DNA of 64,000 nt, from assembly GCA_964543425.1 (NCBI GenBank), contig CAZIYL010000001.1, forward strand, positions 632-64,631. Direction: 5' to 3'. Numbering within the stretch: position 1 is the first letter of the stretch; each line of letters begins with the position of its first letter. The position numbers and the translations under genes are program-made. Shown here piece by piece: positions 1-55,193 of this stretch. This DNA is from an uncultured Deferribacteres bacterium. GTDB lineage: Bacteria; Zhuqueibacterota; JdFR-76; BMS3Abin05. A model generated the notes under the pieces. It was given only the letters and a program-made list of their open reading frames with translations. It was not told where the DNA came from and searched no databases.

Positions 1-767
1 AATATCTTTTGTGCGCCCCCATCCGAGAGACGAAATCCCGTAATAACTTCATCAAAAATCAGAAGGCTTTGGCTTTGTTGCGTAATCGTTTGAAGGTGAT
101 CCAAAAAATCCTCGTCAGGCAAAACCGTTCCCATGTTGCCCGCCACCGGCTCTACAATAATGGCCGCCAAGTCGCTGCCGTACGCCTGCGCCAGTTTTTC
201 TACAGTGCGCCAATCATTGTAAGGTGCCAGTAGTGTGTCAGCGGCCAGACTTTTTGGAACACCCGGCGATCCCGGAATACCCAAGGTTGCCACTCCTGAG
301 CCCGCTTTCATTAAAAACGAATCCGAATGGCCGTGGTAACACCCTTCAAATTTAAGGATTTTGTCTCTCCTTGTAAATCCGCGAGCCATGCGAATAGCCG
401 TCATGGCAGCCTCCGTTCCCGAGCTGACCATTCGAACCTTTTCAACGGAAGGCACCATTTGCACCACTTTTTCAGCCAAGTTAATTTCTGCCTTGGTCGG
501 AGCGCCAAAGCTTGTTCCCTTTTTCAGTGCTTCCTCAACGGCTTCCAAAACCACAGGGGACCGATGCCCCAGAATGAGTGGGCCCCAGGAACTTACAAAA
601 TCAAGGTAACGATTCCCATCCGCATCATACAAAAACTGCCCCTCTCCCCGATCAATAAAAACCGGCGTTCCTCCCACCGAGCGAAACGCTCGCACTGGAC
701 TATTAACGCCTCCGGGAATCACTCTTTGAGCCCGTTCAAACAAAATTTTGGATTTTCCCCGATTCAT
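1..767 (-). CDS. hemL: Glutamate-1-semialdehyde 2,1-aminomutase (N-terminal ~255 aa; gene runs off the window start)
   Basis: The reverse-strand translation from the ATG at 767 reads [28 protein letters not shown]...[17 protein letters not shown]...[10 protein letters not shown]...FDEVITGFR, a typical class-III aminotransferase/GSA-AT N-terminus. Its ATG overlaps the hemC stop (ATGA). It is absent from the ORF track only because it is truncated by the window edge. Confidence 0.85.
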
Positions 768-1702: not shown

Positions 1703-2961
1703 GACTCATCCAATTCAAATAACTGTTTAATAATGCTAATCTTATGAATTCCATCCGGATGATCAAAGAGTTTTCTCAATTCCATTGTGGGCGAATGAAG
1801 CATTTTATTCATCATCCTTCGGGTGATTTCTTCAATGATCGGCCAGTCTGTTTGAGGCACTTTATTCCTAAAATGAGTCAATTCCTGTTGACGAATTTCC
1901 TCAAATCGTTTGCGAAGCTGTTGAATGGTCGGATTAATCTGTAAACCCTTCAGCCATTGCAGAAATTCCTGAACCCCCTCCCGGATCAGGGTCCTTGCGA
2001 TTTCTGCCTCCTGCTGTCGAATCTTCTGATTCTGGTTCACAATCTGGCGTAAATCGTCAATATCATAGAGGTAAACACTGTCCAGATCGCGAATCACGGG
2101 ATCAAAATCGTGGGGCACAGCCAAATCGATTAAAAAAATATTTTTTCGCACACGTTTTTTCACCACGGATTTGATATCGGCCTTCGTAAAAATGTGTTCC
2201 GGAGAACCCGTAGCGCTAATCACAATATCTGCCCGCAATAAATAATCAGGCAATTTTTCAAAGGGAACGGCCTTTCCTTCCACTTCTGTTGCCAAATCTT
2301 TTGCCTTTGAGAAGGTTCGATTCGCCACAAGAATTCGGGAGACACCCTTTTCTTTCAAATGCCTGGCAGTTAAACTTGCCGTTTCTCCCGCGCCGACAAT
2401 TAAGATTTCGCAATTGCTTAGAGGATAAAAAATCTTTTCGGCCAACTCAACCGCTGCATGTCCCACCGAAACAATTCCCTCGCCGATACGTGTTTCTGCC
2501 CGAACTTTTTTATTGACCTCAAATGCTTTATGGAATAAGCGATTAAGAATGAATTTCGTCCCCCCGTTTTGGGAGGCCAAACGATAGGCATCTTTGATTT
2601 GACCAGCAATTTGTGTTTCCCCCACAACCAGTGAGTTCAGACCGCTAATTGTTGAAAAGAGATGGTTCGCCATTTGATCACTGGAATGGTGGTAAAGGTG
2701 CCGATAAATTGCGTCTGACGGGGATAAATTAAAAGAATCGCCATAAAATGAGCGCAGCGTTTGAATGCCTTTGTGAAGGTCGAAAACGACGGCATAAATT
2801 TCACTTCGATTGCAAGTGGATAAAATTACCGCCTCGCGAATTTGATCGCGGCCAAGAAGCCTTTGATAAATTTCGGGGAGAGTTTCCGGGAGAAAAGATA
2901 CGCTTTCCAAAAAGTGAATCGGTGTTGTTTTATGGCTAAATCCGACGACAATCAAATCCAT
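1699..2961 (-). CDS. hemA: Glutamyl-tRNA reductase
   Basis: 420 aa with the N-terminal VVG.SHKTTP motif, the catalytic CNRSEIY, the NADPH-binding GAGETA loop and a C-terminal dimerisation helix. It overlaps the 3' end of the upstream sirC-like gene. Confidence 0.9.
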   Translation of the reverse strand: MDLIVVGFSHKTTPIHFLESVSFLPETLPEIYQRLLGRDQIREAVILSTCNRSEIYAVVFDLHKGIQTLRSFYGDSFNLSPSDAIYRHLYHHSSDQMANHLFSTISGLNSLVVGETQIAGQIKDAYRLASQNGGTKFILNRLFHKAFEVNKKVRAETRIGEGIVSVGHAAVELAEKIFYPLSNCEILIVGAGETASLTARHLKEKGVSRILVANRTFSKAKDLATEVEGKAVPFEKLPDYLLRADIVISATGSPEHIFTKADIKSVVKKRVRKNIFLIDLAVPHDFDPVIRDLDSVYLYDIDDLRQIVNQNQKIRQQEAEIARTLIREGVQEFLQWLKGLQINPTIQQLRKRFEEIRQQELTHFRNKVPQTDWPIIEEITRRMMNKMLHSPTMELRKLFDHPDGIHKISIIKQLFELDES

Positions 2962-3575
2962 TCTTGCAGCTCGTGTTTTACCTGATCCACGCTCCCATTG
3001 CGAATACCCGCCAAAATTTTGGGAATGACCACTTCGTCGATTATTTGTTTGCGCTTGTTTTCGTCCGGCACGTCGTGCTTAAGGCGATCCCGAATCTGAC
3101 CCGCAATATTCAACCCTTTGGCATAGGAGTCATCAAACATGTTTTCGAGCATTTTTCGGATTTCGCGTGCCAGCGCCGGAGACTTCCCTGTAGTCGAAAT
3201 TGCCAATTGCAAATCCCCTCGCCGAACAATGGAAGGAACATAAAAATCGCATAATGACGGATTATCTACAACATTGATCAGCACCCCCCTCCTGTGAGCC
3301 TCTTCAAAGATTTGATGATTTACGGCGGCGTCATTTGTCGCGCTGATAACCAGCCGATAGCCTTCCACATCTCCCGGCCTGTACTTCCGATAATGGCAGG
3401 TAATTTTACCACTTTCCCATAACTCAAAAAGTCCCGGGGACAAATCAGAGCTCACGACGGTCACCTGTGCTCCGTAGTTCAAAAGGGTTTTTACCTTGTG
3501 TGCGGCAACTCTTCCGCCGCCAAAAACCACACACTCTTGGTTGTCGAGTTTTATAAAAATCGGATAAAGATTCAT
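2952..3575 (-). CDS. Precorrin-2 dehydrogenase / sirohydrochlorin ferrochelatase (CysG N-terminal domain, SirC/Met8-like)
   Basis: Has the Rossmann motif VVFGGGRVAAHKVKTLL and an overall SirC/CysG-N fold. The ORF track starts at a GTG at 3602. The ATG at 3575 (MNLYPIF) is preceded by GAGGAAGAAGCAG and is the more likely start. Confidence 0.75.
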   Translation of the reverse strand: MNLYPIFIKLDNQECVVFGGGRVAAHKVKTLLNYGAQVTVVSSDLSPGLFELWESGKITCHYRKYRPGDVEGYRLVISATNDAAVNHQIFEEAHRRGVLINVVDNPSLCDFYVPSIVRRGDLQLAISTTGKSPALAREIRKMLENMFDDSYAKGLNIAGQIRDRLKHDVPDENKRKQIIDEVVIPKILAGIRNGSVDQVKHELQEWI

Positions 3576-3608
3576 CTGCTTCTTCCTCATTTGGAGAGAC
3601 ACCGTGGT

Positions 3609-3630
3609 AGTTGTTCAAACTTCATTCCAA
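3609..3630 (-). promoter_or_regulatory. Weak candidate sigma-54 (-24/-12) promoter for the sirC-hemA-hemC-hemL operon
   Basis: The minus strand reads TTGGAATGAAGTTTGAA. It has the TGG-N9-TTG spacing of the TGGCACG-N4-TTGCW consensus, but the conserved -12 GC is GA. The TSS would fall ~45 nt upstream of the ATG at 3575. This is a match by eye only. Confidence 0.2.
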
Positions 3631-3754
3631 AGCTTGTGATTTTTTTATTTTTTGAATAAAGGAGTGTCTTCTTAATTCCTGTAAAATCAAGAAGAAAAAA
3701 GTTAGGGCATTTTTAAATTTGGGCTGATGTGAAATAAAATTAAGAGCGTGTGGC

Positions 3755-3830
3755 GCAGTTTTTCATAATGAAAAATGGGTGTTTCAAAATGAAAAATACG
3801 TGGAGAATTTCATGAATCCCCGGCACTTGA
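3755..3830. promoter_or_regulatory. Array of three TTCAT..ATGAA inverted-repeat elements (candidate UAS/operator)
   Basis: A perfect 17-nt palindrome TTTTTCATAATGAAAAA is followed by TTTCAAAATGAAA (one mismatch) and the palindromic TTCATGAA, spaced ~21-22 nt apart (helical phasing). They lie between the sigma-54 activator stop and the sirC/hemA start. Confidence 0.4.
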
Positions 3831-3852
3831 AATCAGCCAAGGATTTCTTAAT

Positions 3853-5784
3853 CTAAAGCGACTCTTTACTCCGTATTCCGTAGTCTTTCAATTTTCGCCA
3901 GAGGGTGGCCCGGCTAATCCCGAGCATTTCGGTTGCCTTTCCCAAATTCCAATCCACATATTCAAGTGTTTTCAAAATGTGCTGTTTTTCAATATCATAA
4001 AGGGTTGGCCAAAGGGCGGTGCTATTTTGCAGTTTCTCCGGGAAAAATTGAATTTCCTGTGGAAGATCTGTTGGTGTAATGTGCTGGCCGATTGTCATAA
4101 TAACCGCGCGTTCCATGGCATTTTTCAGCTCGCGCACGTTACCTGGCCAGGGATATAATTGCAGTAAGGTGGATGTTTCTTCGGTGATTCCCAAAATATG
4201 TTTTCCATTTTTCTCGCTGTACTTTTCCAAAAAATATTTCGCAAGGTCGGGAATATCCTCCTGACGCTTTCGCAAAGGCGGAACGACAATATGCATGACC
4301 TTCAGGCGGTAGTACAAATCTTCGCGAAATTTATGTTGGCTGACAAGGGTTTTTAGGTTTTTATTTGTGGCAGCAATGACCCGCACATCAACCTTAATGG
4401 TTTGTGTGCTTCCTACGCGGCGGACGTCCCCCTCCTGAATAACCCGTAGAATATTGGCCTGTGTAGCCGGAGACATTTCCGCAATTTCATCCAAAAAAAT
4501 CGTGCCATGATCCGCCTCTTCAAAGAGTCCCTTTTTCTGAGATGTGGCTCCGGTGAAGGCTCCTTTCACGTATCCAAAAAGCTCACTCTCCAAAAGCGTT
4601 TCGGAAATCGCCGCACAATTAACCACGACAAAAGGCTGATTGGACCTGGGACTATTTTTGTGAATTGCCCGGGCAACCAGTTCTTTCCCCGTACCACTTT
4701 CGCCTTCAATCAAAACCGTTACATCCGTTGCCGAAACTCTGGCAATTGTTTCCAGAACCACCTGCAATTTCCGGCTGCGCCCGATAATTCCGGAAAACTC
4801 AAATCGCTCTCGTGAATACTGCCAGGAAATAAATTCCCTCACATCTTTTTCCAAACGTTTTAAAAGTCCCGGAACACTTTTTTCGCGCTCTTTAAAATTC
4901 CTCCGGATCAGTGCCTCAAGGTCGTTACGGGAATAGCACAGGAGGAGATCATTCTTGAGGGGCTGTGTGGCATTTTCAGAAAGATCGATCAACAAAAGAG
5001 GCGCACCGTGGCGCATTTTAAGCTGATCCTGAAGCATTCGGATTAGTTCTTCTGTGCCGGCATTGCAATCAGCCCTAATAAGAATATCCACCTGTTTCGG
5101 TTGCCCGGTTCTGTTTGAATAATCCATTAATGCTTCAGATTCAGGCCCCAATTTTTGAAGGCTTCCAAATTTCATTTGTCGAAAATAGCCGACCAAATCT
5201 TCTACTTCGCTTGATTCTCCCCACAATACCACATGAATATTTCCAACATTCCCAAAAATTTGCTTTCCCAGCTCCGGAATGGCAGTCTTAATTGTTACGG
5301 CACCGGCAAAAAAAGCATCGCTTTTGGATAAATTTTTGTAAATCCTGACGCCAGTCTGGAACAAACGATTGAGAACCGGACCGGCCATTTCAGTTTCAAG
5401 GCTCTGGGTATAGCCCTCTTTTACAGTCTCCAGAAAAATTACGTCTCCGACGATTGGTGTTCCCACACCCAGAATGACCTCAAAAAAATGACGGATGGCT
5501 TCTCCGCGTTCCCAGACAAAGAAAATCTGCCGCGGAAGGTTCTCAAGTGCAGGGAAAAGGGATTTGAATAGATTTTCTGCGGCCTGAATGGTTTGGTCAA
5601 TCGATTCCGAAATGAAAATCGCTTCAAAGTGAAAAGGAGTGCGGAAAATCATTCCCTCTTCAAAAGGAATTTCTGACTTTACCCGCCGGAGAATATTTCT
5701 AAAGTTGTGATTAAAAATCTCTTTTCGACTTGCTTCGTCTTCAATCCAGGGAAGCTTAATTCCAACAACAATAATTTCTGACAT
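3853..5784 (-). CDS. Sigma-54-dependent transcriptional activator (bEBP) whose N-terminal ~330-aa domain is a glutamyl-tRNA-reductase-like (HemA-like, catalytic Cys absent) module
   Basis: The central AAA+ domain carries Walker A GESGTGKE and the sigma-54 contact motif GAFTGA. The C-terminal Fis-type HTH reads [15 protein letters not shown]. The N-terminus aligns along its full length with the HemA encoded at 1699-2961: IIVVG/LIVVG, identical [44 protein letters not shown] and [16 protein letters not shown]. It lacks CNRSEIY and the GAGETA loop. Confidence 0.8.
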
Positions 5785-25616: not shown

Positions 25617-26891
25617 CTACGTTTTTTGCTTCTTCTTTTTAGCTGCCGGAAAAAGTACGTTGTTCAAAATCAAGCGGTAGCCGGGTGAATTCCGATGAAG
25701 CGAGAGCTGAGTCGGCGGATCGCCCACAGCGTGCCGGTAATCTTCCGGATCGTGCCCACCCAAAAAGGTAAATGTGCCCTTACCAAGGTTGCCGTGAATA
25801 TATTTGACCATATTCGTGCCGGGAACTTCCCCCATAATCACCACGTACGGCTTTATTTTTTTGCGATTAAACGCCGTTGTTTGTCCCATAAATCCCTTAA
25901 TCACGTTGACGTGATCTTGTGTTAACATGGTGGGAACCGGATCGTACTTGGCAGAGAAATCAAAAAGTGTAAATGCCTCTGCTTCAGGCCCCCGCAAGGG
26001 AGCGGCATAGCTTGGTGGAATATCGATATCGGAATATTCGTACACGTAGGGATTTAATTCCAACTGAAAATTGGTAAATGCAAAGGTCTTGGAATAGTCC
26101 AGTTTGGCCTGACAATTGGGATCCGGCGGGTCGCCATCAAATACGGCCGGGACAATATCCACATTTTGTGCCGCCAGAGCAATGTCAATGGTGTCTGTTG
26201 CGGAGCACATGGCAAAAAGAAAACCGCCCTTTTTCACGTAATCCTGAATAATCCTGGCAATGAATTTCTTTTCGTCCGATACCTTCTTGAATCCCAATTT
26301 GTGAGCCATGGCTTCATTTCGCTTAACGTCTTCAATGTACCAGGGCGCATTTCTGAAACTGGCGTAGAATTTTCCAAACTGACCGGTGAAATCCTCGTGA
26401 TGGAGATGCAGCCAGTCATATTTTTCCAGGTCGCCGCGCGCCACTTCTTCGTCCCAGATTTTTGTGTACGGGATTTCGGCATAGGTAAGCGCAAGCGTAA
26501 CGGCATCATCCCAAGGGCGCTTGTTGGGTGGGGTGTACACAGCAATCTTGGGTGCTTTCTCCAGAAGCACAACATCCATGTTGTTATTCTGAATTGTATT
26601 GTAGATTTGAGCGACTTCCGAACCACCAATTTTTTTGAACGAAACCCCGCGCAAACGCAACTGCCGTTCAATTTCCGGGTAATAATCGGTCATAAAGGAA
26701 CCGCCCCGGTAATTCAAGAGCCATTCCACATTGATGCCGCGTTCTAACGTCCAGTACGCAACGCCGTAGGCCTTTAAATGATCGGTTTGGGTTAAGTCCA
26801 TAGGAACCAATATCTTTTGGGCTCGAAGAGGGCTTGCAAATCCAATTAAGATTAACATAACCCCCGCAAAAACAAGTTTTAATAATCTCAT
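25617..26891 (-). CDS. Secreted hypothetical protein (possible class-I glutamine-amidotransferase/ThuA-like fold)
   Basis: 424 aa with a signal peptide. The GATase1-like call rests only on the pattern KKGGFLFAMCSATD and is an inference. Confidence 0.4.
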   Translation of the reverse strand: MRLLKLVFAGVMLILIGFASPLRAQKILVPMDLTQTDHLKAYGVAYWTLERGINVEWLLNYRGGSFMTDYYPEIERQLRLRGVSFKKIGGSEVAQIYNTIQNNNMDVVLLEKAPKIAVYTPPNKRPWDDAVTLALTYAEIPYTKIWDEEVARGDLEKYDWLHLHHEDFTGQFGKFYASFRNAPWYIEDVKRNEAMAHKLGFKKVSDEKKFIARIIQDYVKKGGFLFAMCSATDTIDIALAAQNVDIVPAVFDGDPPDPNCQAKLDYSKTFAFTNFQLELNPYVYEYSDIDIPPSYAAPLRGPEAEAFTLFDFSAKYDPVPTMLTQDHVNVIKGFMGQTTAFNRKKIKPYVVIMGEVPGTNMVKYIHGNLGKGTFTFLGGHDPEDYRHAVGDPPTQLSLHRNSPGYRLILNNVLFPAAKKKKQKT

Positions 26892-41696: not shown

Positions 41697-42410
41697 TTAA
41701 TTTAAAAATTCAACATCCACAATTTTCCTTTCCGGTACCGATTGCGCGTCCGTAATAAAATCTATTAAATAATCATAAATTTTCAATCTTATTTTTTTCA
41801 TTTGAACCAATTTTTTAATCGGCTTTATTTCGTCGGAAAGATCGCCCCCCTTAATTAAGAACAAATGCCCGCCAGGCACGAAAAAAGGGCGCGTCCATTT
41901 AATCAGATTGGTCAGCCTGGAAACCGCCCGCGCCGTGCCAAAACAAAATCGTTCGCGATACTCCTTCTGTCTCGACAAAACCTCCGCCCGTTCCCTTAAC
42001 ACAATTGTGGACGTAAATTCCAATTTCTCAACAACTTCTTCCAAAAACAGCGCCTTTTTTGCAATGGATTCCACCAAAGTAAGTCTCATCTCCGGAAACA
42101 TGATTTTCATGGGAATTCCGGGAAAACCGGCTCCCGAACCGACATCAACCCACCTTCCACTCGGCCGGATATTCAAAACCCCTGGCCAGCCGACGGACTC
42201 CAGAACATGCCTGGCCGCCAGACGATTAATGTCATTTTTAGAAAAGAGGTTTATCTTTCGGTTTTCCAACCAAAGCAGGGAAAGATACGTTGAGAAGAGC
42301 GTCTTCTGTTTGTCGTCAACCGCAAGTCCCAATTGTTCCAACCCAAACCACAATTCCTGAAGCTGGCCGGACAACCATTCCTGTGAAGGAGACTGTTCCA
42401 CGTGAAACAT
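41697..42410 (-). CDS. rsmG: 16S rRNA (guanine527-N7)-methyltransferase
   Basis: 237 aa with the SAM-binding DVGSGAGFPGIP motif. Its start overlaps the mnmG stop. Confidence 0.85.
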   Translation of the reverse strand: MFHVEQSPSQEWLSGQLQELWFGLEQLGLAVDDKQKTLFSTYLSLLWLENRKINLFSKNDINRLAARHVLESVGWPGVLNIRPSGRWVDVGSGAGFPGIPMKIMFPEMRLTLVESIAKKALFLEEVVEKLEFTSTIVLRERAEVLSRQKEYRERFCFGTARAVSRLTNLIKWTRPFFVPGGHLFLIKGGDLSDEIKPIKKLVQMKKIRLKIYDYLIDFITDAQSVPERKIVDVEFLN

Positions 42411-44350
42411 TATTTCCCTGAAGCCGCGAGTCGTTCGCGATGAGACAGGAACACCATCAGAACCGAAACATCCGAAACAGAAACCCCTGAAATTCTGGAT
42501 GCCTGCCCAATTGATCGCGGACGGATTTTCTTTAGTTTCTCCCGACCCTCTGACGACAAAGACGATATGGCATCATAATTAAAATCATTCGGAAGCCGCC
42601 TGCTTTCCATTCGCCGATATTTTTCGATTTGTTTTTGCTGTCGCTGAATGTAACCCTCATATTTTACATCGATCTCAACCTGCTCCAGAGCCCCTTTTCC
42701 AACTTGACTATCAACGGGCATATTTTTCAACCAGGGCAAAAAATCAGCAACAGAAACTTCCGGCCTTTTTAGATAGTGATACAAGGAATCGACTTTACTT
42801 GAAGGCTGGCTCCCCCGCCTCCGAAGAATCGGATTGATCTCTTCAGGAGAGACCTTTTTACTTTTTAAAAACGCCATTATTTCCTGAATAAGGTTTCGTT
42901 CGGCTACCATTTTTTCATAAACACCCCTGGGAAGAAGGCCATATTTCCGGCCATATTCCATCAACCGCAAATCGGCATTATCCTGTCGCAAAACAAGTCT
43001 ATATTCTGCCCGAGAGGTGAACATCCGGTACGGTTCGTTGGTCCCCTTTGTTACCAGATCATCAATAAGAACACCGGTGTACGCCTCGGATCGATCCAAA
43101 ATAAACGGCTCTTCATTCCTGATATTCAGAACGGCATTAATTCCAGCCATTGCTCCCTGGGCTGCGGCCTCCTCGTAGCCGGAGGTTCCATTAATTTGAC
43201 CCGCAAAAAAAAGATTCTTAACGAGTTTTGTTTCCAGATTCGGTTTTAATTGGGTCGGTGGAAAGAAATCATACTCAATTGCGTAACCGAGTCGTGTAAT
43301 TTCCACTTTTTCAAGACCGGGAATGGTGCGAATGGCCTGAATTTGTACATCTTCCGGCAGGCTGGTGGCAAAGCCGTTTACGTACATTTCAGAGGTGTCC
43401 CTGCCCTCAGGCTCCAAAAAAATTTGATGATGCTCCTTGTCGCTAAACCGCACAATTTTATCTTCGATTGACGGGCAATATCGCGGTCCTACACCATGAA
43501 TCATTCCTGTATACAGTGGTGAGCGATCCAACCCAGCGCCAAGCACCAGATGGGTTTTAGGGTTAGTGTAGGTCAAATAGCAGGATACTTGCTCAACATC
43601 CAATTTCAGGGTTTGATATGAAAACGCAACAGGTGTTTCGTCTCCCGGTTGGGCCGTTGTTTTTGAAAAATCTACCGTTCGACCATCAATTCTCGGCGGC
43701 GTTCCGGTTTTTAGTCGGCCTGACTCAAAACCAAGCGCGACGAGGTCTTCTGTAATTCCCCGCGATGGAAACTCCCCGGCACGTCCCGCATTCATTGCCT
43801 GAAGTCCGATAAAAATCTTTCCATTTAAAAACGTGCCTGCAGTTAATATCACCGCCCTCCCATGGATTTCTGTTCCCGTCTGAACCTTAACGCCCTTTAT
43901 TTCATTATTTTCTACCACAAGTCCCGTAACCGGCAATTGCTTAATATCTAAGTTTTGTTGGCGTTCCAACGCAAGGCGCATTTCCCAGGAATACGCCAGC
44001 CGATCCGTCTGTGCTCGTGGCGACCAAACGGCAGGGCCCTTTGAGCGATTGAGCATTCTAAACTGAATACCGGTTTTATCGGTTACTTTCGCCATTTCGC
44101 CACCAAGAGCATCAACTTCTTTTACAAGATGCCCCTTTGCAAGTCCGCCAATCGCCGGATTACAGGACATTTGCGCAATGGTAAAAATATTCATGGTAAG
44201 CAAGAGGGTCTTCCCACCCATTCTTGCAGAAGCCAGCGCTGCTTCACACCCCGCGTGTCCCGCACCCACAACAATAACATCATAATCGCCGTAGAGGCTG
44301 CCCGCGGATTGTTTCACGTGGAACAATATATTATTCTTATTGTTTGTCAT
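42410..44350 (-). CDS. mnmG: tRNA uridine-5-carboxymethylaminomethyl modification enzyme MnmG (GidA)
   Basis: Has the FAD motif YDVIVVGAGHAGCEAA and an overall GidA match. The ATG at 44350 gives an ATGA overlap with the mnmE stop. The ORF track's 44362 start is probably 4 codons too long. Confidence 0.9.
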   Translation of the reverse strand: MTNNKNNILFHVKQSAGSLYGDYDVIVVGAGHAGCEAALASARMGGKTLLLTMNIFTIAQMSCNPAIGGLAKGHLVKEVDALGGEMAKVTDKTGIQFRMLNRSKGPAVWSPRAQTDRLAYSWEMRLALERQQNLDIKQLPVTGLVVENNEIKGVKVQTGTEIHGRAVILTAGTFLNGKIFIGLQAMNAGRAGEFPSRGITEDLVALGFESGRLKTGTPPRIDGRTVDFSKTTAQPGDETPVAFSYQTLKLDVEQVSCYLTYTNPKTHLVLGAGLDRSPLYTGMIHGVGPRYCPSIEDKIVRFSDKEHHQIFLEPEGRDTSEMYVNGFATSLPEDVQIQAIRTIPGLEKVEITRLGYAIEYDFFPPTQLKPNLETKLVKNLFFAGQINGTSGYEEAAAQGAMAGINAVLNIRNEEPFILDRSEAYTGVLIDDLVTKGTNEPYRMFTSRAEYRLVLRQDNADLRLMEYGRKYGLLPRGVYEKMVAERNLIQEIMAFLKSKKVSPEEINPILRRRGSQPSSKVDSLYHYLKRPEVSVADFLPWLKNMPVDSQVGKGALEQVEIDVKYEGYIQRQQKQIEKYRRMESRRLPNDFNYDAISSLSSEGREKLKKIRPRSIGQASRISGVSVSDVSVLMVFLSHRERLAASGK

Positions 44351-45744
44351 TTTCCAATACAAAATCTGTTAAAAATATGATTCAAAACATCATCCGGCGA
44401 AGTTTCACCCACAATCTCGCCAAGGGCGTTTAGCGCCTCACGAATGTCCACGGCAACGAAATCACCACTCATTTCCTTTTTGATTGTTTGCCGGGCATCT
44501 TCCAGCGCTGAAATCGTTTTCCTCATCGCTTCAACATGACGCACATTCGTAAGAACCACTTCTTCATTGCTCAGATTTTCATCGGCTAAAATCTGCTTTT
44601 CAATCGCCTCATAAAAATCACTCAACCCCTCACCGGTCTTGGCTGAAATCCTAATTGGTGATAATTGTCGAATGTTTTCAGGTACCTCCGAATTTACTTG
44701 GTTCTTTTTCAGGTCTATTTTATTTTCAACAATTAGAATCACAGCCCTGTTTTTTTCTCGGGCATCCACAATCTTTTCCCATACAAAATCATCCTCCGGT
44801 TTCCATCCGCAAGAAGCGTCAAACAGAAAAACCACCAAATCCGCGACTTCTAAGTGAAATTGGGCAATTTGAATTCCCTTTGCTTCAACGCGATTGTGCG
44901 GCTCTCTGAGTCCCGCCGTGTCAATAATTCGAAACAAAACACCCTTGATGTCCAGTTGAGCCTCCAGTGCATCACGCGTGGTTCCCGGTGTAGAATCCAC
45001 AATCGCACGGTCACTCCCGAGTAATTGGTTTAGCAGGCTCGACTTTCCCACATTTGGACACCCGACAATCGTCATTTTAACACCGTTGTGCAAAAAACGT
45101 CCCTTTTGGTAGGAAGAAATTATTTTCTCCAAGACATCCATAACCGAATCCATGCGAGATAAAATGTCCCCCTTCGGGGTAAGCTCAATATCTTCTTCGG
45201 AAAAATCCAATCCCAATTCAAGTAATCCCAATATATCGATGAGTTCATTTTGAAGGGCTTGAACCCTTTTTAATAGATTACCCGAGAGCTGCTGATAGGA
45301 TACCCGAAGGCTTTTTTGCGTTTGAGCCTGAATAATATCTCCCACTGCCTCTGCCTGAGAAAGATCCAGTTTTCCATTCAAAAATGCGCGTTTTGTAAAT
45401 TCACCCGGCTCCGCCATGCGTGCTCCGGCACGAAGTGTTGCCTGCAACACCTTTTGTGTTACAAAAATTCCACCATGGCAACTGATTTCCACCACATCTT
45501 CTCCTGTAAAAGAATGCGGTGCACGAAAAACCGTAGCTACACCCCGGTCAATGGGCTGATGCGATTCGGGTTCTACAATAGTTCCTACATGAACCGTATG
45601 AGTTGCTGCATCTCCAAGAGAAATGCTTCCTTTAAAAATCTTATCTGAAACGGAAAGCGCCCTTTCTCCGCTGATCCGGATAACAGAAATCCCCCCTGTA
45701 CCAACCGGGGTGGAAATGGCTGAAATTGTTTCTGCTTTTTCCAT
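44347..45744 (-). CDS. mnmE: tRNA modification GTPase MnmE (TrmE)
   Basis: 465 aa with an N-terminal THF-binding domain, a G-domain (GCPNVGKSSLLN, DTAGLRE) and the C-terminal CIGK. Confidence 0.9.
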   Translation of the reverse strand: MEKAETISAISTPVGTGGISVIRISGERALSVSDKIFKGSISLGDAATHTVHVGTIVEPESHQPIDRGVATVFRAPHSFTGEDVVEISCHGGIFVTQKVLQATLRAGARMAEPGEFTKRAFLNGKLDLSQAEAVGDIIQAQTQKSLRVSYQQLSGNLLKRVQALQNELIDILGLLELGLDFSEEDIELTPKGDILSRMDSVMDVLEKIISSYQKGRFLHNGVKMTIVGCPNVGKSSLLNQLLGSDRAIVDSTPGTTRDALEAQLDIKGVLFRIIDTAGLREPHNRVEAKGIQIAQFHLEVADLVVFLFDASCGWKPEDDFVWEKIVDAREKNRAVILIVENKIDLKKNQVNSEVPENIRQLSPIRISAKTGEGLSDFYEAIEKQILADENLSNEEVVLTNVRHVEAMRKTISALEDARQTIKKEMSGDFVAVDIREALNALGEIVGETSPDDVLNHIFNRFCIGK

Positions 45745-45790
45745 AAATAAAAACAGCCCTACCAGAGATTTTGGCAGGGCTGGTAGTTAT
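45745..45790 (-). terminator. Rho-independent terminator after yidC
   Basis: On the minus strand, CTACCAGCCCTgccaaaatctCTGGTAGGGCTG is followed by TTTTTATTT. Confidence 0.6.
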
Positions 45791-45800
45791 CAAATAAATT

Positions 45801-47627
45801 CTACTTCTTTTTCCGAAAACTTCTCTGTTTGTTTGCTTTCTTTTCTACAGGTTTAATTTCCAACTTGTCCGTCTTAACAAAATACTGCTGAGCAATGGTG
45901 AGAATATTAAACAACGTGTAGTACAGGTTCAAACCCGACGGAAAAGAATTAAAGAGCAAAACAAAGAATATCGGCATTAAATACGTTAGAGATTTCTGTT
46001 TTGGGTCCTGCGTTGTCATTTTTTGCTGAAAGTACATAGTAAAGCCCATGATAATGGGCAAAACATTAATGGTGTTTCCATACATTGGAATTGTGAATGG
46101 CAACGACGCAACAGTATCCGGCATGGATAAATCCTTAATCCACCACAGGAATGGAGCACCCCGGAGCTCAATTGTCGATCGAAAGACAATAAACAACCCC
46201 ACAAGCAGAGGCATTTGCAAAAGGGTTGGTAAACACCCGCCCACTGGGTTAACCCCATACTCCTTGTAAAGCTTCATGGTCTCTTTATTCATCCGCTGGG
46301 GATCATCTTTGTATTTTTCTTTTATTTCTGCCATTAACGGTTGAACAAGCTGCATTTTTTTCATTGAAACATAACTCTTATGCGTTAATGGATACACAAT
46401 CATTTTTATAAGTATTGAAAAAACAATGATCACCCAACCAAAGTTCGGAATAAATCTATGGAGGAATTTAAACGAAACCAAGATCGCAATGCTGAAGGGA
46501 CGAAAAAGCCGCTCGTACCACCCCGACGACATAATGACTTTATCCAGCTTAACGCCTAATTTCCGGACGCTCTTATATTCCAAAGGCCCGATATAAACAG
46601 TAAATGTATCCTTTGTCACGGTACCGCTGTTTAAGGGTATTTCAATGGTCATTGAGTAACGCTTTATGACATTTTTCTTTTCCGCACGTATTCCCCTTCC
46701 TTCTACAATTACTCCCCTTCCCGGCTTTTCTTTTGAAATAATTGCAGACGTAAAGTATTTTGTTCGTACGGCTGCCCAGACAACAGAACCCATTATTTTT
46801 TTCTTTTTATATTCCGGTTTGTTTCCAATTGCAAATTCATCGAGTTCTTTGCCCAGCATGGAATAGACTTTGGAGTACCCCTCGTCATCCCGAAGGCGTT
46901 TCTCCGTGGGATTTAAACCCGATTTCCAGGTTACATAATAACTATTATTTTCAACCCAGGAATCAAATCCTTTTAGATCGACAACAAAATCAATATTATA
47001 CTTATCTTTATAAAAAATAAACTTTTTTATAATTTCCCTGCCATTTTTAAAAGAAAGTCGAGCCAGAACCGTTGCAATTGGGTTTCTTTCATTAACGACA
47101 ACAAGGGAGTCTCCTGAACTTTTTTTCTGAATCTCTAAAGTGTAATTTATGTTGCCAAAGTCAACCGTGTCATTGTTGACAAAAAACTGAAGACCAAGAT
47201 TATCATATCCTTTAGCCGATATTAATTGGACGAGTTTGCCGTTATATGTCGTATATTCCTTTAATTTCCAATTTGTTATGGTCGCACCTTTTGAGGATAT
47301 TTTGGCTTGATACAGAGGAGTTTCTACGGTAATTGTTTTTGCTTTTTCCTCAATGGCACTTTTTGGTAATAATTCTTTTAATTGATTATTTTCTTTTTTG
47401 GTAACGGAAAGTTTTACCCGTTGATTCTTTTTTATGGGCGGAGCCACCTCCGATTTAATTGCCCTTGTTTGTTCCGGTTTGTAGGTTTTCCTCAATGTAT
47501 CTTCAACAACCCGGCCCTGCCGCGGCGATTGAGATTTTGGCATTACCAATTTTTTATAATAAGAGGTTTGAGTAAAAATCAAAACAATTCCAATTAAAAC
47601 AAATGCAATTATCGTATCTCTATTCAT
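45801..47627 (-). CDS. yidC: Membrane protein insertase YidC
   Basis: 608 aa with an N-terminal TM, a large periplasmic domain and a C-terminal 5-TM Oxa1 core. It ends in a basic tail. Confidence 0.9.
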   Translation of the reverse strand: MNRDTIIAFVLIGIVLIFTQTSYYKKLVMPKSQSPRQGRVVEDTLRKTYKPEQTRAIKSEVAPPIKKNQRVKLSVTKKENNQLKELLPKSAIEEKAKTITVETPLYQAKISSKGATITNWKLKEYTTYNGKLVQLISAKGYDNLGLQFFVNNDTVDFGNINYTLEIQKKSSGDSLVVVNERNPIATVLARLSFKNGREIIKKFIFYKDKYNIDFVVDLKGFDSWVENNSYYVTWKSGLNPTEKRLRDDEGYSKVYSMLGKELDEFAIGNKPEYKKKKIMGSVVWAAVRTKYFTSAIISKEKPGRGVIVEGRGIRAEKKNVIKRYSMTIEIPLNSGTVTKDTFTVYIGPLEYKSVRKLGVKLDKVIMSSGWYERLFRPFSIAILVSFKFLHRFIPNFGWVIIVFSILIKMIVYPLTHKSYVSMKKMQLVQPLMAEIKEKYKDDPQRMNKETMKLYKEYGVNPVGGCLPTLLQMPLLVGLFIVFRSTIELRGAPFLWWIKDLSMPDTVASLPFTIPMYGNTINVLPIIMGFTMYFQQKMTTQDPKQKSLTYLMPIFFVLLFNSFPSGLNLYYTLFNILTIAQQYFVKTDKLEIKPVEKKANKQRSFRKKK

Positions 47628-47675
47628 GGTTATCCTAACTTTTCACATATAAATATTTATTCTATTTTTGATCCT

Positions 47676-47888
47676 TTATGGCAGCCGGTCATATCCCCCC
47701 TTATTGAAAGGATTGCATCTCAAGATTCGCCAAACAGATAAATAGGTTGCCTTAAAAAAGTTGTACTTTGTGTATGCTTCAATGCTATACGTTGAACATG
47801 TGGGATAAAATCTACAAGAAGGGGGGAAAAACGGTGAAATGAGCATCTTATATAATTTAATCAAAACGATTACGACTTTTCTTAACAT
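47676..47888 (-). CDS. yidD: Membrane protein insertion efficiency factor YidD
   Basis: 70 aa. [22 protein letters not shown] is the signature YidD motif. Confidence 0.85.
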
Positions 47889-47903
47889 TTTCCAATAATT
47901 CCT

Positions 47904-48221
47904 TTAAATCTGAAATCTCATGGCATAAACTCCAATATGTAGGCAATAATTCCCCTGTTTTGCGTACGTAAAAAACAACTTTTTTTTTTCAAACCACACC
48001 TTATTATTCCGATAGATTTCTCGAATATATCGCTTTATACGATTTCGCTCAACAGCTTTTCTAAATTTTCGACTGACCGCAACCCCCATTTTCGGTTTCT
48101 CGGATGAAACAATAAAAAGAGTTACTGTCCTTCCTTTTATCTTTTTTCCATTTCTAAATATTTTGTCGAAAGCCGACACCCCCCGAATGATTTCCTGTTT
48201 TTTTAAGGTCTTAACCGGCAT
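47904..48221 (-). CDS. rnpA: Ribonuclease P protein component
   Basis: 105 aa, basic, with the RNR-like motif AVERNRIKRYIRE. Confidence 0.85.
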   Translation of the reverse strand: MPVKTLKKQEIIRGVSAFDKIFRNGKKIKGRTVTLFIVSSEKPKMGVAVSRKFRKAVERNRIKRYIREIYRNNKVWFEKKKLFFTYAKQGNYCLHIGVYAMRFQI

Positions 48222-48254
48222 GAGCGGTAATTTTCTTCTATAAAATAATGATAA

Positions 48255-48263
48255 TGTGGATAA
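48255..48263. promoter_or_regulatory. Consensus DnaA box (TGTGGATAA) at the rpmH 3' end
   Basis: An exact reverse-complement match to TTATCCACA. Confidence 0.5.
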
Positions 48264-48419
48264 CTATTTTGTCGTATATTCATTACTAACCGTTAGTTTT
48301 TTCCGACTCTTCAAACGCCGCCGCCGTAAGACATCCCGCCCGGCTACAGAAGACATTCTTTCCATAAATCCGTGTTTGTTTCGGCGCTTTCTATTGCTGG
48401 GTTGAAACGTTCGTTTCAT
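48264..48419 (-). CDS. rpmH: 50S ribosomal protein L34
   Basis: Not in the ORF track (<60 aa). The minus-strand translation [51 protein letters not shown] is preceded by GAAAGGAGAATTTTAA-ATG. Confidence 0.85.
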
Positions 48420-48628
48420 TTAAAATTCTCCTTTCATTTGTTTTTGTTTTACTTAGCCTTTTAAATAGTGACGTTAAATATAATATTAAAAAGCATAAAA
48501 AATCAAGTTTTTTTTGGGAAATAAATTACCATTATACGCAGTTCATTTTTCCCTTATTTTTAGACCTTTTGATTTGACTTTGAACGAAATTTTTTTATAT
48601 TTGTTTCCGTAGAGAGTGTTTTATTAAT

Positions 48629-48648
48629 TGTGGATAACTTGTGGAAAA
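48629..48648. promoter_or_regulatory. Two adjacent DnaA boxes upstream of dnaA (TGTGGATAA, TGTGGAAAA)
   Basis: One consensus box and one 8/9 box, ~110 nt upstream of the dnaA ATG. This suggests dnaA autoregulation or part of a split origin. Confidence 0.55.
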
Positions 48649-48758
48649 AGCCTTTTTAATTCTCTGAATCCTTTCTTGTTCAACAAGGTCACGGGCTATC
48701 AAATATGAAGTCCTTTTAATATTTACGATTTTTTCTCTTTCAAAAAACGAGGGTTTTT

Positions 48759-50126
48759 ATGGAAAATGTGATTGGCTCTGTTGAAGAAGCCTGGAATTTT
48801 TGTTTGTCCCGCCTCCGTCCAAAAATTAGTCCACAAAGCTTTAATACATGGTTTAAGCCAATTGTGCCTATTAAAGCAACGGATAGCCAGCTAACAATCC
48901 AGGTTCCAAGCGAGTTTTTTTATGAATGGATTGACGAACATTTTCGGGACATTATTGACCAGGCGCTTTATGAAACATTTAGCAAGCCCATCAAGCTAAA
49001 GTATTCCATTGTTTTGGATGAAAATGCAAAAGTATCTCCCTCAAACGATTCCAGTAGAGGGAAAAAACATCTTCTCTTTTACAATAATGATGGTACGCAT
49101 TTAAATAGTCGTTATATTTTTGAGAATTTTGTGGAAGGCAATAGTAATCAATTTGCAAAGGCCGCCTCATTAGCTGTTGCCGAATCACCTGGAAAAACAT
49201 CTTTTAATCCTTTGTTAATTTATGGCGGTGTTGGATTGGGTAAAACCCATCTGATTCAAGCAATTGGTAATCATGTTCTGACAAAGTATCCAAATAAACG
49301 TATCCAATATGTTTCGAGCGAAAAATTTACGCTTGAATTTATTGATTCTATTAAAAACAATCGGGCTTCCGAATTCAGTTTGCATTACAGAAACGTGGAT
49401 ATTTTACTTGTGGATGACGTTCAGTTTTTTATTAATAAAGAACGAACGCAAGAGGAATTTTTTCACACCTTTAACGAATTGCAACAAAAGGGCAAACAAA
49501 TTGTCTTATCTTCCGACCGCCCTCCGCAGGATTTGGCTGGTTTGGAAGATCGACTTATTTCCCGATTTAGTTCAGGTCTTATTGCTGACATTCAACGGCC
49601 CGATCTGGAAACACGAATCGCTATTTTACAGCGCAAGGCTGAACAAGATCAGATTCAGCTTTCCGATGAAATTACTCAATTTGTTGCGGCAAATATCAAT
49701 TCCAATATTCGCGAGCTTGAGGGTGCCCTCATTAAATTACTCGCCTACGCCTCCCTAAACGGCGAAGACATAACCTTGCGTCTTGCAAAACGGGTTCTGA
49801 AGGATTTAATTAAGAAAAAGAAAAAAACAAATCTCTCAATCGAATTAATTCAACGCGTTGTAAGCGATTATTTTTCGATAAAAGAGGATTTAATTCGTGC
49901 AAAAACAAGGAAAAAAGAAATCGTTGCGGCGCGTCAGATTTCAATGTATTTATCGAAAACATTAACAAACAGCTCTCTCAAAACCATTGGGCTGCATTTT
50001 GGCGGGCGCGACCACACCACCGTCATTCACGCCTATCATACAATCGAAAACAGGCTGACTTCGGAACCTAAATTCCGTGAGATTGTTCAAGAAATTCAAG
50101 AAAAAGTTGATGTGGAGAGCCAATAA
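48759..50126 (+). CDS. dnaA: Chromosomal replication initiator protein DnaA
   Basis: 455 aa with the AAA+ motifs GGVGLGKTHL and DDVQF, and a domain-IV DnaA-box-binding signature. Confidence 0.95.
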   Translation: MENVIGSVEEAWNFCLSRLRPKISPQSFNTWFKPIVPIKATDSQLTIQVPSEFFYEWIDEHFRDIIDQALYETFSKPIKLKYSIVLDENAKVSPSNDSSRGKKHLLFYNNDGTHLNSRYIFENFVEGNSNQFAKAASLAVAESPGKTSFNPLLIYGGVGLGKTHLIQAIGNHVLTKYPNKRIQYVSSEKFTLEFIDSIKNNRASEFSLHYRNVDILLVDDVQFFINKERTQEEFFHTFNELQQKGKQIVLSSDRPPQDLAGLEDRLISRFSSGLIADIQRPDLETRIAILQRKAEQDQIQLSDEITQFVAANINSNIRELEGALIKLLAYASLNGEDITLRLAKRVLKDLIKKKKKTNLSIELIQRVVSDYFSIKEDLIRAKTRKKEIVAARQISMYLSKTLTNSSLKTIGLHFGGRDHTTVIHAYHTIENRLTSEPKFREIVQEIQEKVDVESQ

Positions 50127-50488
50127 ACGTTTTCCACATTTTTTGTGGAAAACGTTGTGAATAGATGTGGAAAAACCCGTGTTTTTCCACACTGTTTTGT
50201 TTGGCTGCAAAATTATTCAAAATACAGGGAATATATAAACAAGTTCTAAACAGTTTTTTCACATAAATAAAAAGTTGTTCAAAATTCTGAATACATTGTT
50301 TTTTATCGAATTATTTTCTCTTACAAAAATGTTTTCCACATATTCACATACATTACTATTACTATTTTTTTATTCTTTTAAAAAAAAATATTAAAGATAT
50401 AATAAAATAATTCCCTTGAAATTATGCGAAAAATTAATTATTTTAATAAAAGTGTAGAAATTACTATTAATTTCACATTCGGGAGGTA
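50127..50488. other. Probable chromosomal origin (oriC): DnaA-box cluster plus AT-rich DNA-unwinding region between dnaA and dnaN
   Basis: At least five TTTTCCACA/TGTGGAAAA boxes lie at ~50130-50341 in both orientations. They are followed by ~130 nt of >85 % AT sequence (50346-50470) immediately upstream of dnaN. Confidence 0.7.
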
Positions 50489-51688
50489 ATGATGAAATTT
50501 TCCGTACCGCGTTCGGAAATTTTTAAAGCTATACAAAGTATTATCGGTGTTGTTCCTCCAAAAACAGCCACACCCATACTGAGTGATGTTTTGTTGAGTC
50601 TTGAGAATAATACTCTAAGATTATACGCGACGGATTTAGAAATTCTGATGTCCACGGAAATCAATGTGGATGGGGTTGAAGATGGGGCTCTGGCGGTGCC
50701 GTCCAAAATGCTGTCCGAAATTCTGCGAGAATTGGGAGATGTAAAGATAGAGGTTCTTACGGAAGACAATTATCGCCTGCGGCTTATTAGCGATCGGGGT
50801 GTATATAAAATTTCCGGAGATCCAAGTGAAGATTTTCCACTGATGCCGGTTTCGGAATTAGTAGAGGAATTCGATATTGACAGTAAGAAAATCTCCCGAA
50901 TGATTGGTAAAACAATTTTTTCGGTTTCGCACGATGAACTGCGCCCGGCGCTAATGGGAGTGCTTTTTCAAATTGACTCAAATGAATTTAGAATGGTTGC
51001 CACGGATGGACACCGGCTGGCACGGATTACAAATGCGGACTTTTCAGCCTCTGTATCTTCAAAAAAATTAATTGTGCCGACCAAAGCATTAAATCTTTTA
51101 TTAAAAAATCTTTCGGATGAAACAAAGGGAATAAAAGTCTCGTTTGGAGAAAATTATATTGTTTTTAAATTTGATCATTCAGAGATTATTTCTCGTTTGG
51201 TGGAAAGCCAGTATCCGGAATATGAAAATGTAATTCCGACAACCAACAAAAGACGTTTACAGATTAATCGGGAATTATTTCACCGAAGCCTAAAGCGCGT
51301 TTCTATTTTTTCAAATTCCATGACGAGGCAAGTGCGGCTTTCCCTCAAACCGGACAAAATTGAAGTTTTTTCTCAGGATTTGGATATTGGTGGTGAGGGT
51401 ATGGAAGTGTTACCTGCGGAATACGAGGGTGAAGAAATGGATATTGGTTATAACGCTCAATATCTGATGGAAATTATTCAACATATTGATACCGAAGATG
51501 TTTTAATGATGTTAGACACGCCGGTTTCCGCAGGAATTGTTCTTCCTTCCGAGCAACTTGAAAAGGAGGATGTTTTGCTTCTTGTAATGCCCGTCCGATT
51601 AACAGAAATGGAAGAAGCAGAGGAAAATTCAGAGGGGGTAAGCGAATACGACAATAGCAGTGAGTATCCGGAAGCTGATGATTATTAA
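50489..51688 (+). CDS. dnaN: DNA polymerase III beta sliding clamp with unusual ~29-aa acidic C-terminal tail
   Basis: 399 aa. The canonical clamp ends near VMPVRL and is followed by TEMEEAEENSEGVSEYDNSSEYPEADDY. Confidence 0.9.
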   Translation: MMKFSVPRSEIFKAIQSIIGVVPPKTATPILSDVLLSLENNTLRLYATDLEILMSTEINVDGVEDGALAVPSKMLSEILRELGDVKIEVLTEDNYRLRLISDRGVYKISGDPSEDFPLMPVSELVEEFDIDSKKISRMIGKTIFSVSHDELRPALMGVLFQIDSNEFRMVATDGHRLARITNADFSASVSSKKLIVPTKALNLLLKNLSDETKGIKVSFGENYIVFKFDHSEIISRLVESQYPEYENVIPTTNKRRLQINRELFHRSLKRVSIFSNSMTRQVRLSLKPDKIEVFSQDLDIGGEGMEVLPAEYEGEEMDIGYNAQYLMEIIQHIDTEDVLMMLDTPVSAGIVLPSEQLEKEDVLLLVMPVRLTEMEEAEENSEGVSEYDNSSEYPEADDY

Positions 51689-51763
51689 TGTTTGATAGTT
51701 TTATTTTTTAATAAGAATTGTTATTTGACAAGAGAAATGCGTTTTTAAAAAGCCAGGAGCAGG

Positions 51764-52896: not shown

Positions 52897-52900
<4 letters not shown>
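51764..52900 (+). CDS. recF: DNA replication and repair protein RecF
   Basis: 378 aa with Walker A GYNGQGKTN, the ABC-type signature and Walker B LLDDVYTEID. Confidence 0.9.
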
Positions 52901-55144
<2,244 letters not shown>

Positions 55145-55193
55145 AATATGAATCTATCGGTTGGAATATAAAATTTAAGGAAGAGAAATAGGA

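Follow-up and report, generated by a model that had tools for sequence, protein, structure and literature searches.

The 64 kb window analysed here (the whole stretch of 64,000 nucleotides from contig CAZIYL010000001.1) carries a cluster of heme-synthesis genes on its minus strand, in which a gene for a sigma-54 activator, hereafter the regulator, is separated by a 277-nt gap from sirC, the first gene of a proposed operon (Table 1). We propose that this gap is the control region through which sigma-54 and a bacterial enhancer-binding protein (bEBP) would govern the sirC-hemA-hemC-hemL(-cobA/hemD) operon, and we put the probability of this reading at roughly 0.78. The initial annotation had suggested such control of a hem operon, and the suggestion is supported by the conservation and helical phasing of two palindromes and a GG-N10-G(A/T) promoter element, and by the association of the same palindromes with bEBP genes elsewhere. 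The palindrome and promoter strings quoted in that annotation were all found in the window. By its GyrB, the host is nearest to 'bacterium BMS3Abin05' (88%), followed by candidate division KSB1 (77%) and Calditrichaeota (72%), which places it among the uncultured bacteria of that group.

A full-length protein search with the regulator gave a family (P0001-P0017) of the same architecture and 92% to 38% identity, and the corresponding contigs were fetched; the N-terminal 320 residues alone gave no match in a word-indexed search, and the full-length query was needed. Three further loci (L104, L115 and L137) were added to the family loci by an exact-pattern scan of metagenomes. Eleven family loci, comprising 22 sites, were scored for the enhancer and ten for the promoter, as one contig stops inside the promoter. 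Downstream of the regulator gene, all eleven loci have a tandem pair of TTTCA-N3-TGAAA sites, spaced 20-21 bp apart in every case, and, where the contig reaches it, a GG-N10-G(A/T) element. The ten core bases of the enhancer site are invariant in 21-22 of the 22 sites, the central triplet is variable, and the distal site is followed by C in 9/11 loci. The initial annotation had made its reading depend on conservation of these motifs in orthologous intergenic regions; the pair is kept in all 11 loci and the promoter in the ten scored for it, and the loss that would have spoken against it was not seen. The remainder of the gap is poorly alignable and has diverged among the loci. In the nagB-hemX gap of these loci, taken as a control, only the ribosome-binding site is retained. 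Upstream of the hemX-like gene of the close relatives no conserved enhancer or promoter was found, and hence no evidence of autoregulation.

Exact matches to TTTCA-N3-TGAAA number two in the 64 kb window, both within the gap, against 0.43 expected, and the tandem arrangement would be expected 0.05 times in the window even with three mismatches allowed. The proximal site is the core of a perfect 17-mer palindrome, TTTTTCATAATGAAAAA (3759-3775). The centres of the two sites lie 21 bp apart, and together the sites also form a 21-nt direct repeat. The array had been described as three palindromes spaced ~21-22 nt apart and situated 150-250 nt upstream of the sirC start. The placement is correct, the centres lying 192, 213 and 237 nt upstream of ATG 3575, and the first two members have the stated spacing, are rare in the window and are conserved. 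The third, TTCATGAA, was rejected as a member: it is 24.5 bp from the distal site, its geometry is different, and it is missing from every orthologous region. Since about one 8-bp palindrome is expected per 277-nt stretch of such A+T-rich sequence, and this one is absent from the orthologs, it is attributed to chance.

A single near-copy of the enhancer half-site with one mismatch, TTTCA(T/C)(T/A)TTGAAG, is located inside the minus-strand regulator gene itself (5622-5634) and recurs in L081 (6151), L083 (6154) and L085 (6154). It encodes the peptide PFHFEA of the pseudo-active site described below and is probably a coding coincidence.

The mutual complementarity of the two palindrome copies (15 nt, 87%) would also allow them to act as RNA, in the form of a hairpin, terminator or attenuator that ends the regulator transcript. 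The stems of such a structure would be almost wholly A-U and are followed by no U-tract, and no Rfam family was matched anywhere in the window. Moreover, what is conserved in the ten core bases is their sequence, with no compensatory change, and the two central triplets, which vary independently of each other, are often unable to pair. A function at the RNA level therefore appears very improbable, and we regard the palindromes as candidate enhancer sites in DNA.

The promoter element, TTGGAATGAAGTTTGAA on the minus strand, spans 39-55 nt upstream of ATG 3575, with its core ending 39 nt before the sirC ATG. Compared with the sigma-54 consensus, the GG, the 10-bp spacing and the TTG are present, and the C of the GC is replaced by A. 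Across the family the promoters are set in the context YGGMAY-N5-TTGAA. The GG, the A at -22 and the TTG are invariant in 10/10 promoters, AA follows the TTG in 9/10, and GA occupies -13/-12 in 9/10, with T for A in L137; in the more distant loci the -24 half reads TGGCAC, CGGCAC or TGGCAT. The element is thus placed as a sigma-54 promoter should be, upstream of a gene, conserved in all ten loci and adjacent to the gene of an activator with the GAFTGA motif. The earlier description of a TGG-N9-TTG element with sigma-54 spacing and GA for GC was accurate in its letters, and the "imperfect" -12 turns out to be a conserved feature rather than a defect. The predicted 5' leader is ~28 nt long, has the ribosome-binding site GAGGAAG and shows no significant fold relative to shuffled sequences (z = 0.57).

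The invariance of the GG, placed exactly 10 bp upstream of TTG at all ten loci, also bears on an alternative in which the GG is incidental, TTGAAC is the -35 box of a housekeeping-sigma promoter and the palindromes are operators of another dimeric regulator, presumably a repressor. TTGAAC does resemble TTGACA, the palindromes are A+T-rich with half-sites comparable to those known for other regulator families, and the sigma-54 matrix score of the window promoter is low, as detailed below. Nevertheless, no conserved -10 box follows TTGAAC at 16-18 nt in the orthologous sequences, the search of the gap for sigma-70-like promoters gave matches on the opposite strand only and none on that of the genes, and the -24 half drifts among the loci toward TGGCAC and not away from it. 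The location of the palindromes, 135-160 bp upstream and in helical phase, is the geometry of an enhancer rather than of an operator, and the motif is strongly tied to bEBP genes elsewhere. Operator function with a housekeeping promoter is accordingly considered quite improbable, and sigma-54 control is preferred.

Replacement of the C at -12 has precedents. Among the accepted Salmonella sigma-54 sites (PMC3844500 Table 3), STM0649.S (TGGCACGCCTTTTGATTA) has TTGA, and pspA (..TTGTATT) and pspG have TTGT; glnH is also among the sites without GC, and the replacements are GA, GT and TC (PMC3844500). These sites indicate that GG-N10-GA can work. They differ from the promoter studied here in having a perfect TGGCAC/T at -24, where the window promoter has TGGAAT, and in being single exceptions, whereas GA is conserved here across the whole regulator family. 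An independent GG-N10-GA promoter candidate is found in a Caldithrix metagenome-assembled genome (L076, 7148-7165), where TGGCACGGCTTTTGAAAC lies 24 nt before the ATG of a gene for a small tetratricopeptide repeat (TPR) protein and directly downstream of an unrelated PAS-type bEBP gene. The KSB1 locus L011 carries the canonical TGGCACACCAGTTGCA, and the lineage therefore seems to accept both -12 forms.

Measured from the centre of the distal palindrome to the first G of the GG, five loci have a distance of 159-161 bp and three a distance of 149 bp; it is 163 bp in L104 and 108 bp in L137. The main distance classes differ by ~11, 41 and 52 bp, which correspond to one, four and five helical turns. 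Such paired 13-bp palindromes, helically phased and 108-163 bp from the GG, have the arrangement of bEBP enhancers. Between enhancer and promoter there is a middle block (Table 1) at a fixed distance from the GG, beginning 61-63 bp before it in each of the eight close loci. From the enhancer the block is either 60-61 or 69-71 bp away, and it is here that the one-turn difference falls. The IHF consensus WATCAANNNNTTR is matched with at most one mismatch at -75 to -89 in 5/10 loci. We offer only as a suggestion that the block may be a site for a DNA-bending protein of the IHF/HU type or for a second regulator.

The same tandem motif was found well beyond this family. A metagenome scan for the exact tandem pattern returned at least 80 loci (539 kb), and the figures that follow refer to the matches listed. 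Of these 80, 22 have a sigma-54 AAA+ gene beside the motif, and in 12 of the 22 no more than ~135 nt separate the motif from the 3' end of the bEBP gene. In many such loci a GG-N10-GC element follows 50-135 nt after the motif, as exemplified by L171 (TGGCATTCTATTTGCA), L119 (TGGCATTTTTTTTGCT), L113 (TGGAACGGAAATTGCT) and L108 (CGGCACATCGATTGCC). The bEBPs concerned have other sensors and other targets, including receiver-type proteins encoded before kup or kdpA and one protein with a PrpR-N/PAS sensor. By comparison, 80 other bEBP genes and their surroundings (843 kb) contain no such tandem palindrome, even at up to two mismatches; these control loci are contigs matched by the full regulator through its AAA+ domain only, none of the matches reaching the N-terminus. 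From the 22 of 80 loci and the empty control, the tandem TTTCA-N3-TGAAA is, as far as sequence can tell, an enhancer type that recurs with some of the activators that have a Fis-type helix-turn-helix (HTH) domain.

Two groups of loci stand out. In the unrelated metagenome contigs L118, L121 and L169 (kup) and L127 (kdpA), the tandem enhancer follows genes of receiver-type sigma-54 activators and precedes potassium-uptake genes; promoter-like elements with odd -12 boxes (TGGCACAACAATAGAA and GGGCACATCATTTGTT) are seen at the kup/kdpA loci. In L098, L156 and L176 the tandem palindrome is ~10 nt upstream of the bEBP start codon instead of downstream of the gene, which suggests possible autoregulation; the N-terminus of these bEBPs looks XylR/V4R-like by eye.

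Several observations weigh against sigma-54/bEBP control of the hem operon through this gap. The -12 C, the defining base of the consensus, is missing from the window promoter. With a position weight matrix built from 29 intergenic Salmonella sites (PMC3844500 Table 3), a source phylum distant from the host, the window promoter scores 7.0 bits, as compared with 16-23.5 bits for the training sites, and some close orthologous promoters score only 2.4-3.5 bits. The enhancer-promoter module was not found in the same form in three distant family loci (L090, L091 and L217). No rpoN gene was seen in the 64 kb window or in the short related contigs, and regulators with the palindrome cannot be told from those without it by their recognition helix, TTLWRK. 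The middle block of the window does not match the E. coli IHF consensus, and with matches in half of the loci only, its role is no more than suggested. Finally, the interval from the regulator stop codon (3853) to sirC has no predicted terminator, so that read-through could supply some of the hem transcription.

The matrix scores have another side. The window promoter ranks 27 of 127,966 window positions and is by far the top site of the intergenic region, and the distant orthologous promoters reach 12.7-15.3 bits. Scoring with a sigma-54 matrix, which the initial annotation had recommended, thus singles out the predicted site within the gap and leaves it below the training range. Its caution that the promoter call is weak by itself was justified: the loose pattern GGMAY-N5-TTGMW has seven matches in the window against 4.65 expected, and the significance of the element comes from its conservation, since alone it is not above chance. 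The highest-scoring sigma-54-like site of the window (TGGAATGGCTCTTGAATT, 26728, minus strand, 10.1 bits) was judged a chance match as it is inside the coding region for a secreted protein. This protein (424 aa, 25617-26891, minus strand) has no Pfam match, and its gene follows one for a large TPR protein and a DUF4159 gene.

The missing terminator, together with the co-directional arrangement of all genes and the weakness of the window promoter, also fits a scheme in which the enhancer is real and hem transcription comes mostly by read-through from the hemX-regulator operon, with GG-N10-GA serving as a poised or minor sigma-54 site. The distribution of large insertions (200-900 nt) among the loci argues otherwise, as these are found only outside the enhancer-promoter module. 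In L083, ~900 nt are inserted between the regulator stop codon and the enhancer; L095, L096 and L115 have a ~200-nt repeat-like element in the leader, and L087 has ~590 nt inserted there. The module stays intact with ~900 nt before the enhancer (L083) and with 200-590 nt containing hairpins before sirC (L095, L087), and insertions on either side of it make obligate read-through unlikely. The phasing and invariance further imply selection on the promoter itself. We consider predominant read-through improbable, if somewhat less so than a housekeeping promoter with operators. Judged from the sequences, the pattern of insertions and spacings is the behaviour expected of an enhancer that would face its promoter across a bend, in keeping with sigma-54 control. 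The ~200-nt leader insertion (L095, 8250-8440, between promoter and sirC; also L096 and L115) has inverted-repeat ends, GTCATTCTGAG...CTCAGAATGAC, and resembles a miniature mobile repeat; in L096 it carries a called open reading frame of 71 aa.

The regulator itself has the makeup of a bEBP, namely an AAA+ domain with Walker A and B motifs, a GAFTGA loop and a C-terminal HTH_8 domain. Pfam assigns the sigma-54 AAA+ domain PF00158 to residues 333-499 (E = 1e-74), followed by the lid (domain to 584), and the Fis-type HTH_8 to residues 595-635 (E = 7e-13). The motifs GESGTGKE and GAFTGA are conserved in 14 aligned sequences, and the AAA+ core is 53-56% identical to those of the NtrC1 and ZraR structures (1ny6, 1ojl), with TM (template modelling) scores of 0.83-0.84. 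The N-terminus is of a different origin. Residues 26-151 match GlutR_N (39.9 bits; cut-off 27), the N-terminus matches Methanopyrus kandleri glutamyl-tRNA reductase (GluTR, 1gpj) by sequence (E = 1e-7), and residues 3-320 align colinearly with residues 3-334 (domains I and II) of proteins of GluTR length. A fold search with the full-length model returned AAA+ structures only, and the N-terminus was modelled separately. The AlphaFold model of residues 1-320 has a predicted local distance difference test value (pLDDT) of 86 and a predicted TM score (pTM) of 0.79. Its best Foldseek match is 1gpj (E = 3e-15, TM 0.72), next to which come all Arabidopsis GluTR entries and then a gap to the first non-GluTR match at E = 3e-3.

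The features needed for catalysis are gone from this domain. TPFHFE takes the place of the catalytic TCNRSE, with loss of the Cys, LWGESSE that of the Rossmann/NADPH motif VGAGETA, and the dimerisation domain of GluTR is replaced by the AAA+ module. With the catalytic Cys, the NADPH motif and the dimerisation domain all missing, the N-terminus is not an active GluTR, and by sequence and model the sensor (residues ~1-320) is a catalytically dead GluTR fold. The fusion is rare. Among 1.84 billion representatives searched, 1,647 matched, and of the best 150 of these 1,647 nearly all are of GluTR length and ~6 have the fused length. The genuine hemA of the cluster is a separate gene (Table 1).

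In 12/13 family loci, L104 being the exception, the regulator gene is directly preceded by a hemX-like gene, whose product matches PF01578 (E = 2e-25) and scores 104 bits with the CcsB model, below the family cut-off of 188, and is for that reason called HemX-like. In Staphylococcus aureus and Bacillus subtilis, HemX (PF01578) lowers the abundance of glutamyl-tRNA reductase under heme-replete conditions by an undefined mechanism, and this control matches heme synthesis to heme status in Firmicutes (PMC5801465). The locus shares with the HemX-GtrR (HemA) system of these two species (PMC5801465) the presence of a PF01578 gene beside a gene of the GluTR fold in a hem cluster. The partner in that system is an active enzyme and the output is enzyme abundance, whereas here the partner is a dead copy fused to an activator, which would act on transcription; the hemX-like gene comes before the GluTR-like one here, and hemA before hemX there.

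A mechanism consistent with these features can be outlined. RNA polymerase with sigma-54 would bind the promoter through the -24 box TGGAAT and the -12 box TTGAA, with a predicted start near 3603, and the closed complex would be held until remodelled by the AAA+ regulator encoded immediately upstream. The regulator would dock via its Fis-type HTH on the two palindromes two helical turns apart (-164 and -185), where the active ring may assemble, and would contact the promoter through DNA looping, probably helped by a bend at the conserved block at -78. Its input module would be the dead glutamyl-tRNA reductase, co-encoded with the HemX-like membrane protein. In the most likely logic, heme or tetrapyrrole status, read by the pseudo-enzyme and its HemX-like partner, would set the transcription of the early heme genes. 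We infer from sequence that the regulator binds the palindromes, that sigma-54 is required, that transcription starts near 3603 and that the DNA is bent, and likewise what the signal is and in which direction it acts. The signal sensed is probably heme status, and activation under heme shortage is the simplest guess by analogy with HemX.

The architecture of the cis elements alone is textbook. As in the NtrC-glnAp2 and NifA-nifH systems, paired dyad activator sites on one helix face precede a -24/-12 promoter by 100-200 bp, a conserved block is situated between the sites and the promoter, and the activator combines a GAFTGA AAA+ core with a C-terminal Fis-type HTH. At nifH-type promoters IHF sits between enhancer and promoter. 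The locus differs from the NtrC/NifA systems in its half-site, TTTCA-N3-TGAAA, in its -12 box, TTGAA and not TTGC, in its input domain, a dead GluTR that is neither receiver nor GAF, and in its pathway, heme synthesis. LuxO-type enhancer sites, TTGCA-N3-TGCAA, belong to a phosphorylated response regulator that controls small RNAs. They have in common with the present sites a length of 13 bp, two inverted 5-bp half-sites and a 3-bp spacer for a Fis-type HTH of a bEBP, and differ from them in the bases of the half-sites. What is new here is the sensor domain, the controlled pathway and the conserved GA at -12. Bacterial heme synthesis is known to be controlled through enzyme stability (HemA proteolysis, HemX), feedback inhibition or regulators such as Irr, Fur and HrrSA. 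A literature search of incomplete coverage yielded no report of a sigma-54-controlled hem operon or of a regulator with a GluTR-fold sensor.

Table 1 Features of the hem locus and its control region, with promoter strings of orthologous loci.
Feature	Position	Strand	Sequence, evidence or remark
hemL (glutamate-1-semialdehyde aminomutase), 5' part only, leaves the window	1-761	minus	translation
hemC, hydroxymethylbilane synthase	764-1702	minus	TIGR00212
hemA, genuine glutamyl-tRNA reductase	1699-2961	minus	TIGR01035, 442 bits; cut-off 210
sirC / cysG N-terminal type gene (precorrin-2 dehydrogenase), first gene of the proposed regulated operon	2952-3575	minus	
Gap, regulator to sirC, 277 nt	3576-3852		
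Predicted transcription start	3601-3605, ~3603	minus	from the usual -12 to +1 distance
Candidate sigma-54-type promoter core	3614-3628	minus	GGAATGAAGTTTGAA; GG at -25/-24 (3628, 3627); GA at -13/-12 (3616, 3615), consensus GC
Conserved middle block	3671-3691	minus	gene strand CTTGATTTTACAGGAATTAAG; centred near -78; invariant alignment columns
Promoter-proximal candidate enhancer site, TTTCA-N3-TGAAA	3761-3773		gene strand TTTCATTATGAAA; centre 3767, ~-164
Promoter-distal candidate enhancer site, TTTCA-N3-TGAAA	3782-3794		TTTCAAAATGAAA; gene strand TTTCATTTTGAAA; centre 3788, ~-185 from predicted start
Third palindrome	3809-3816		TTCATGAA; 8 bp, spacerless
Regulator gene (sigma-54 activator), 643 aa	3853-5784	minus	Pfam, alignments and model
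hemX-like membrane protein gene, 273 aa	5837-6658	minus	PF01578; 3' end 52 nt upstream of regulator gene
Promoter string, window			TGGAATGAAGTTTGAA
Promoter string, L093			TGGCATAAAAATTGAA
Promoter string, L089			CGGCACGGAAATTGAA
Promoter string, L092			CGGCACGGAAGTTGAA
Promoter string, L087			CGGCACAAAAATTGAA
Promoter string, L104			TGGCACAGAAATTGAA
Promoter string, L137			TGGCACGGTGTTTGTT

The regulator family is always found among heme genes. In close relatives the sirC-hemA-hemC-hemL-cobA/hemD genes are downstream of the regulator, and in the orthologous loci the cobA/hemD fusion comes after hemL, the gene with which the window breaks off. L091 has hemL-ahbAB-radical SAM-hemB beside the regulator, and in L217 the genes hemE-hemN-hemH-hemY-hemB-hemL are upstream, with the regulator at the end of the cluster. 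The sirC start at ATG 3575, as initially annotated, agrees with the orthologs, which keep the N-terminus MNLYPIF and the ribosome-binding site at this codon; the upstream GTG 3602 was dropped as a start for the same reason.

Distant family members offered a few further observations. L090, whose regulator is 41% identical, has a single perfect TTTTTTCAAAATGAAAAAT (5133-5151) ~40 nt upstream of the start codon of the hemX-like gene and divergent from the gene of a DtxR-family iron regulator and an iron-transport cluster. Between hemH and a hemY-like gene, L217 has a near-perfect 64-nt palindrome (2919-2980; 32-nt arms, 91% complementary). A sigma-54 promoter candidate in this hemH-hemY region, TGGCAAGATGATTGAAAA, forms one arm of that palindrome and was not counted. 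Elsewhere in the window, positions 42410-57668 make up the chromosomal replication origin region, with mnmG, mnmE and yidC on the minus strand and dnaA (48759-50126), dnaN, gyrB and gyrA on the plus strand; the cumulative GC skew has its minimum at ~48-50 kb, where the G+C content falls to 36%. The hem locus is thus ~45 kb from oriC and co-oriented with replication.

A broader interpretation is advanced tentatively, with the odds somewhat against it. A duplicate of GluTR that has lost its active site, fused to a sigma-54 activator and accompanied by a HemX-like protein, may form a dedicated heme/tetrapyrrole sensor through which the first steps of heme synthesis are turned on. The HemX-GluTR couple of Firmicutes would then represent an ancient signalling pair, here wired to transcription, and the conserved TTGAA would be no weak site but a functional -12 variant tolerated by the lineage. 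If the proposed logic is right, heme synthesis has made one of its own enzymes into its transcriptional sensor, and a reporter on this promoter would offer a tractable read-out for the undefined HemX-GluTR mechanism. The family-wide GG-N10-GA would also mean that sigma-54 promoters of the uncultured KSB1/Calditrichota group are under-called when scored with enteric matrices.

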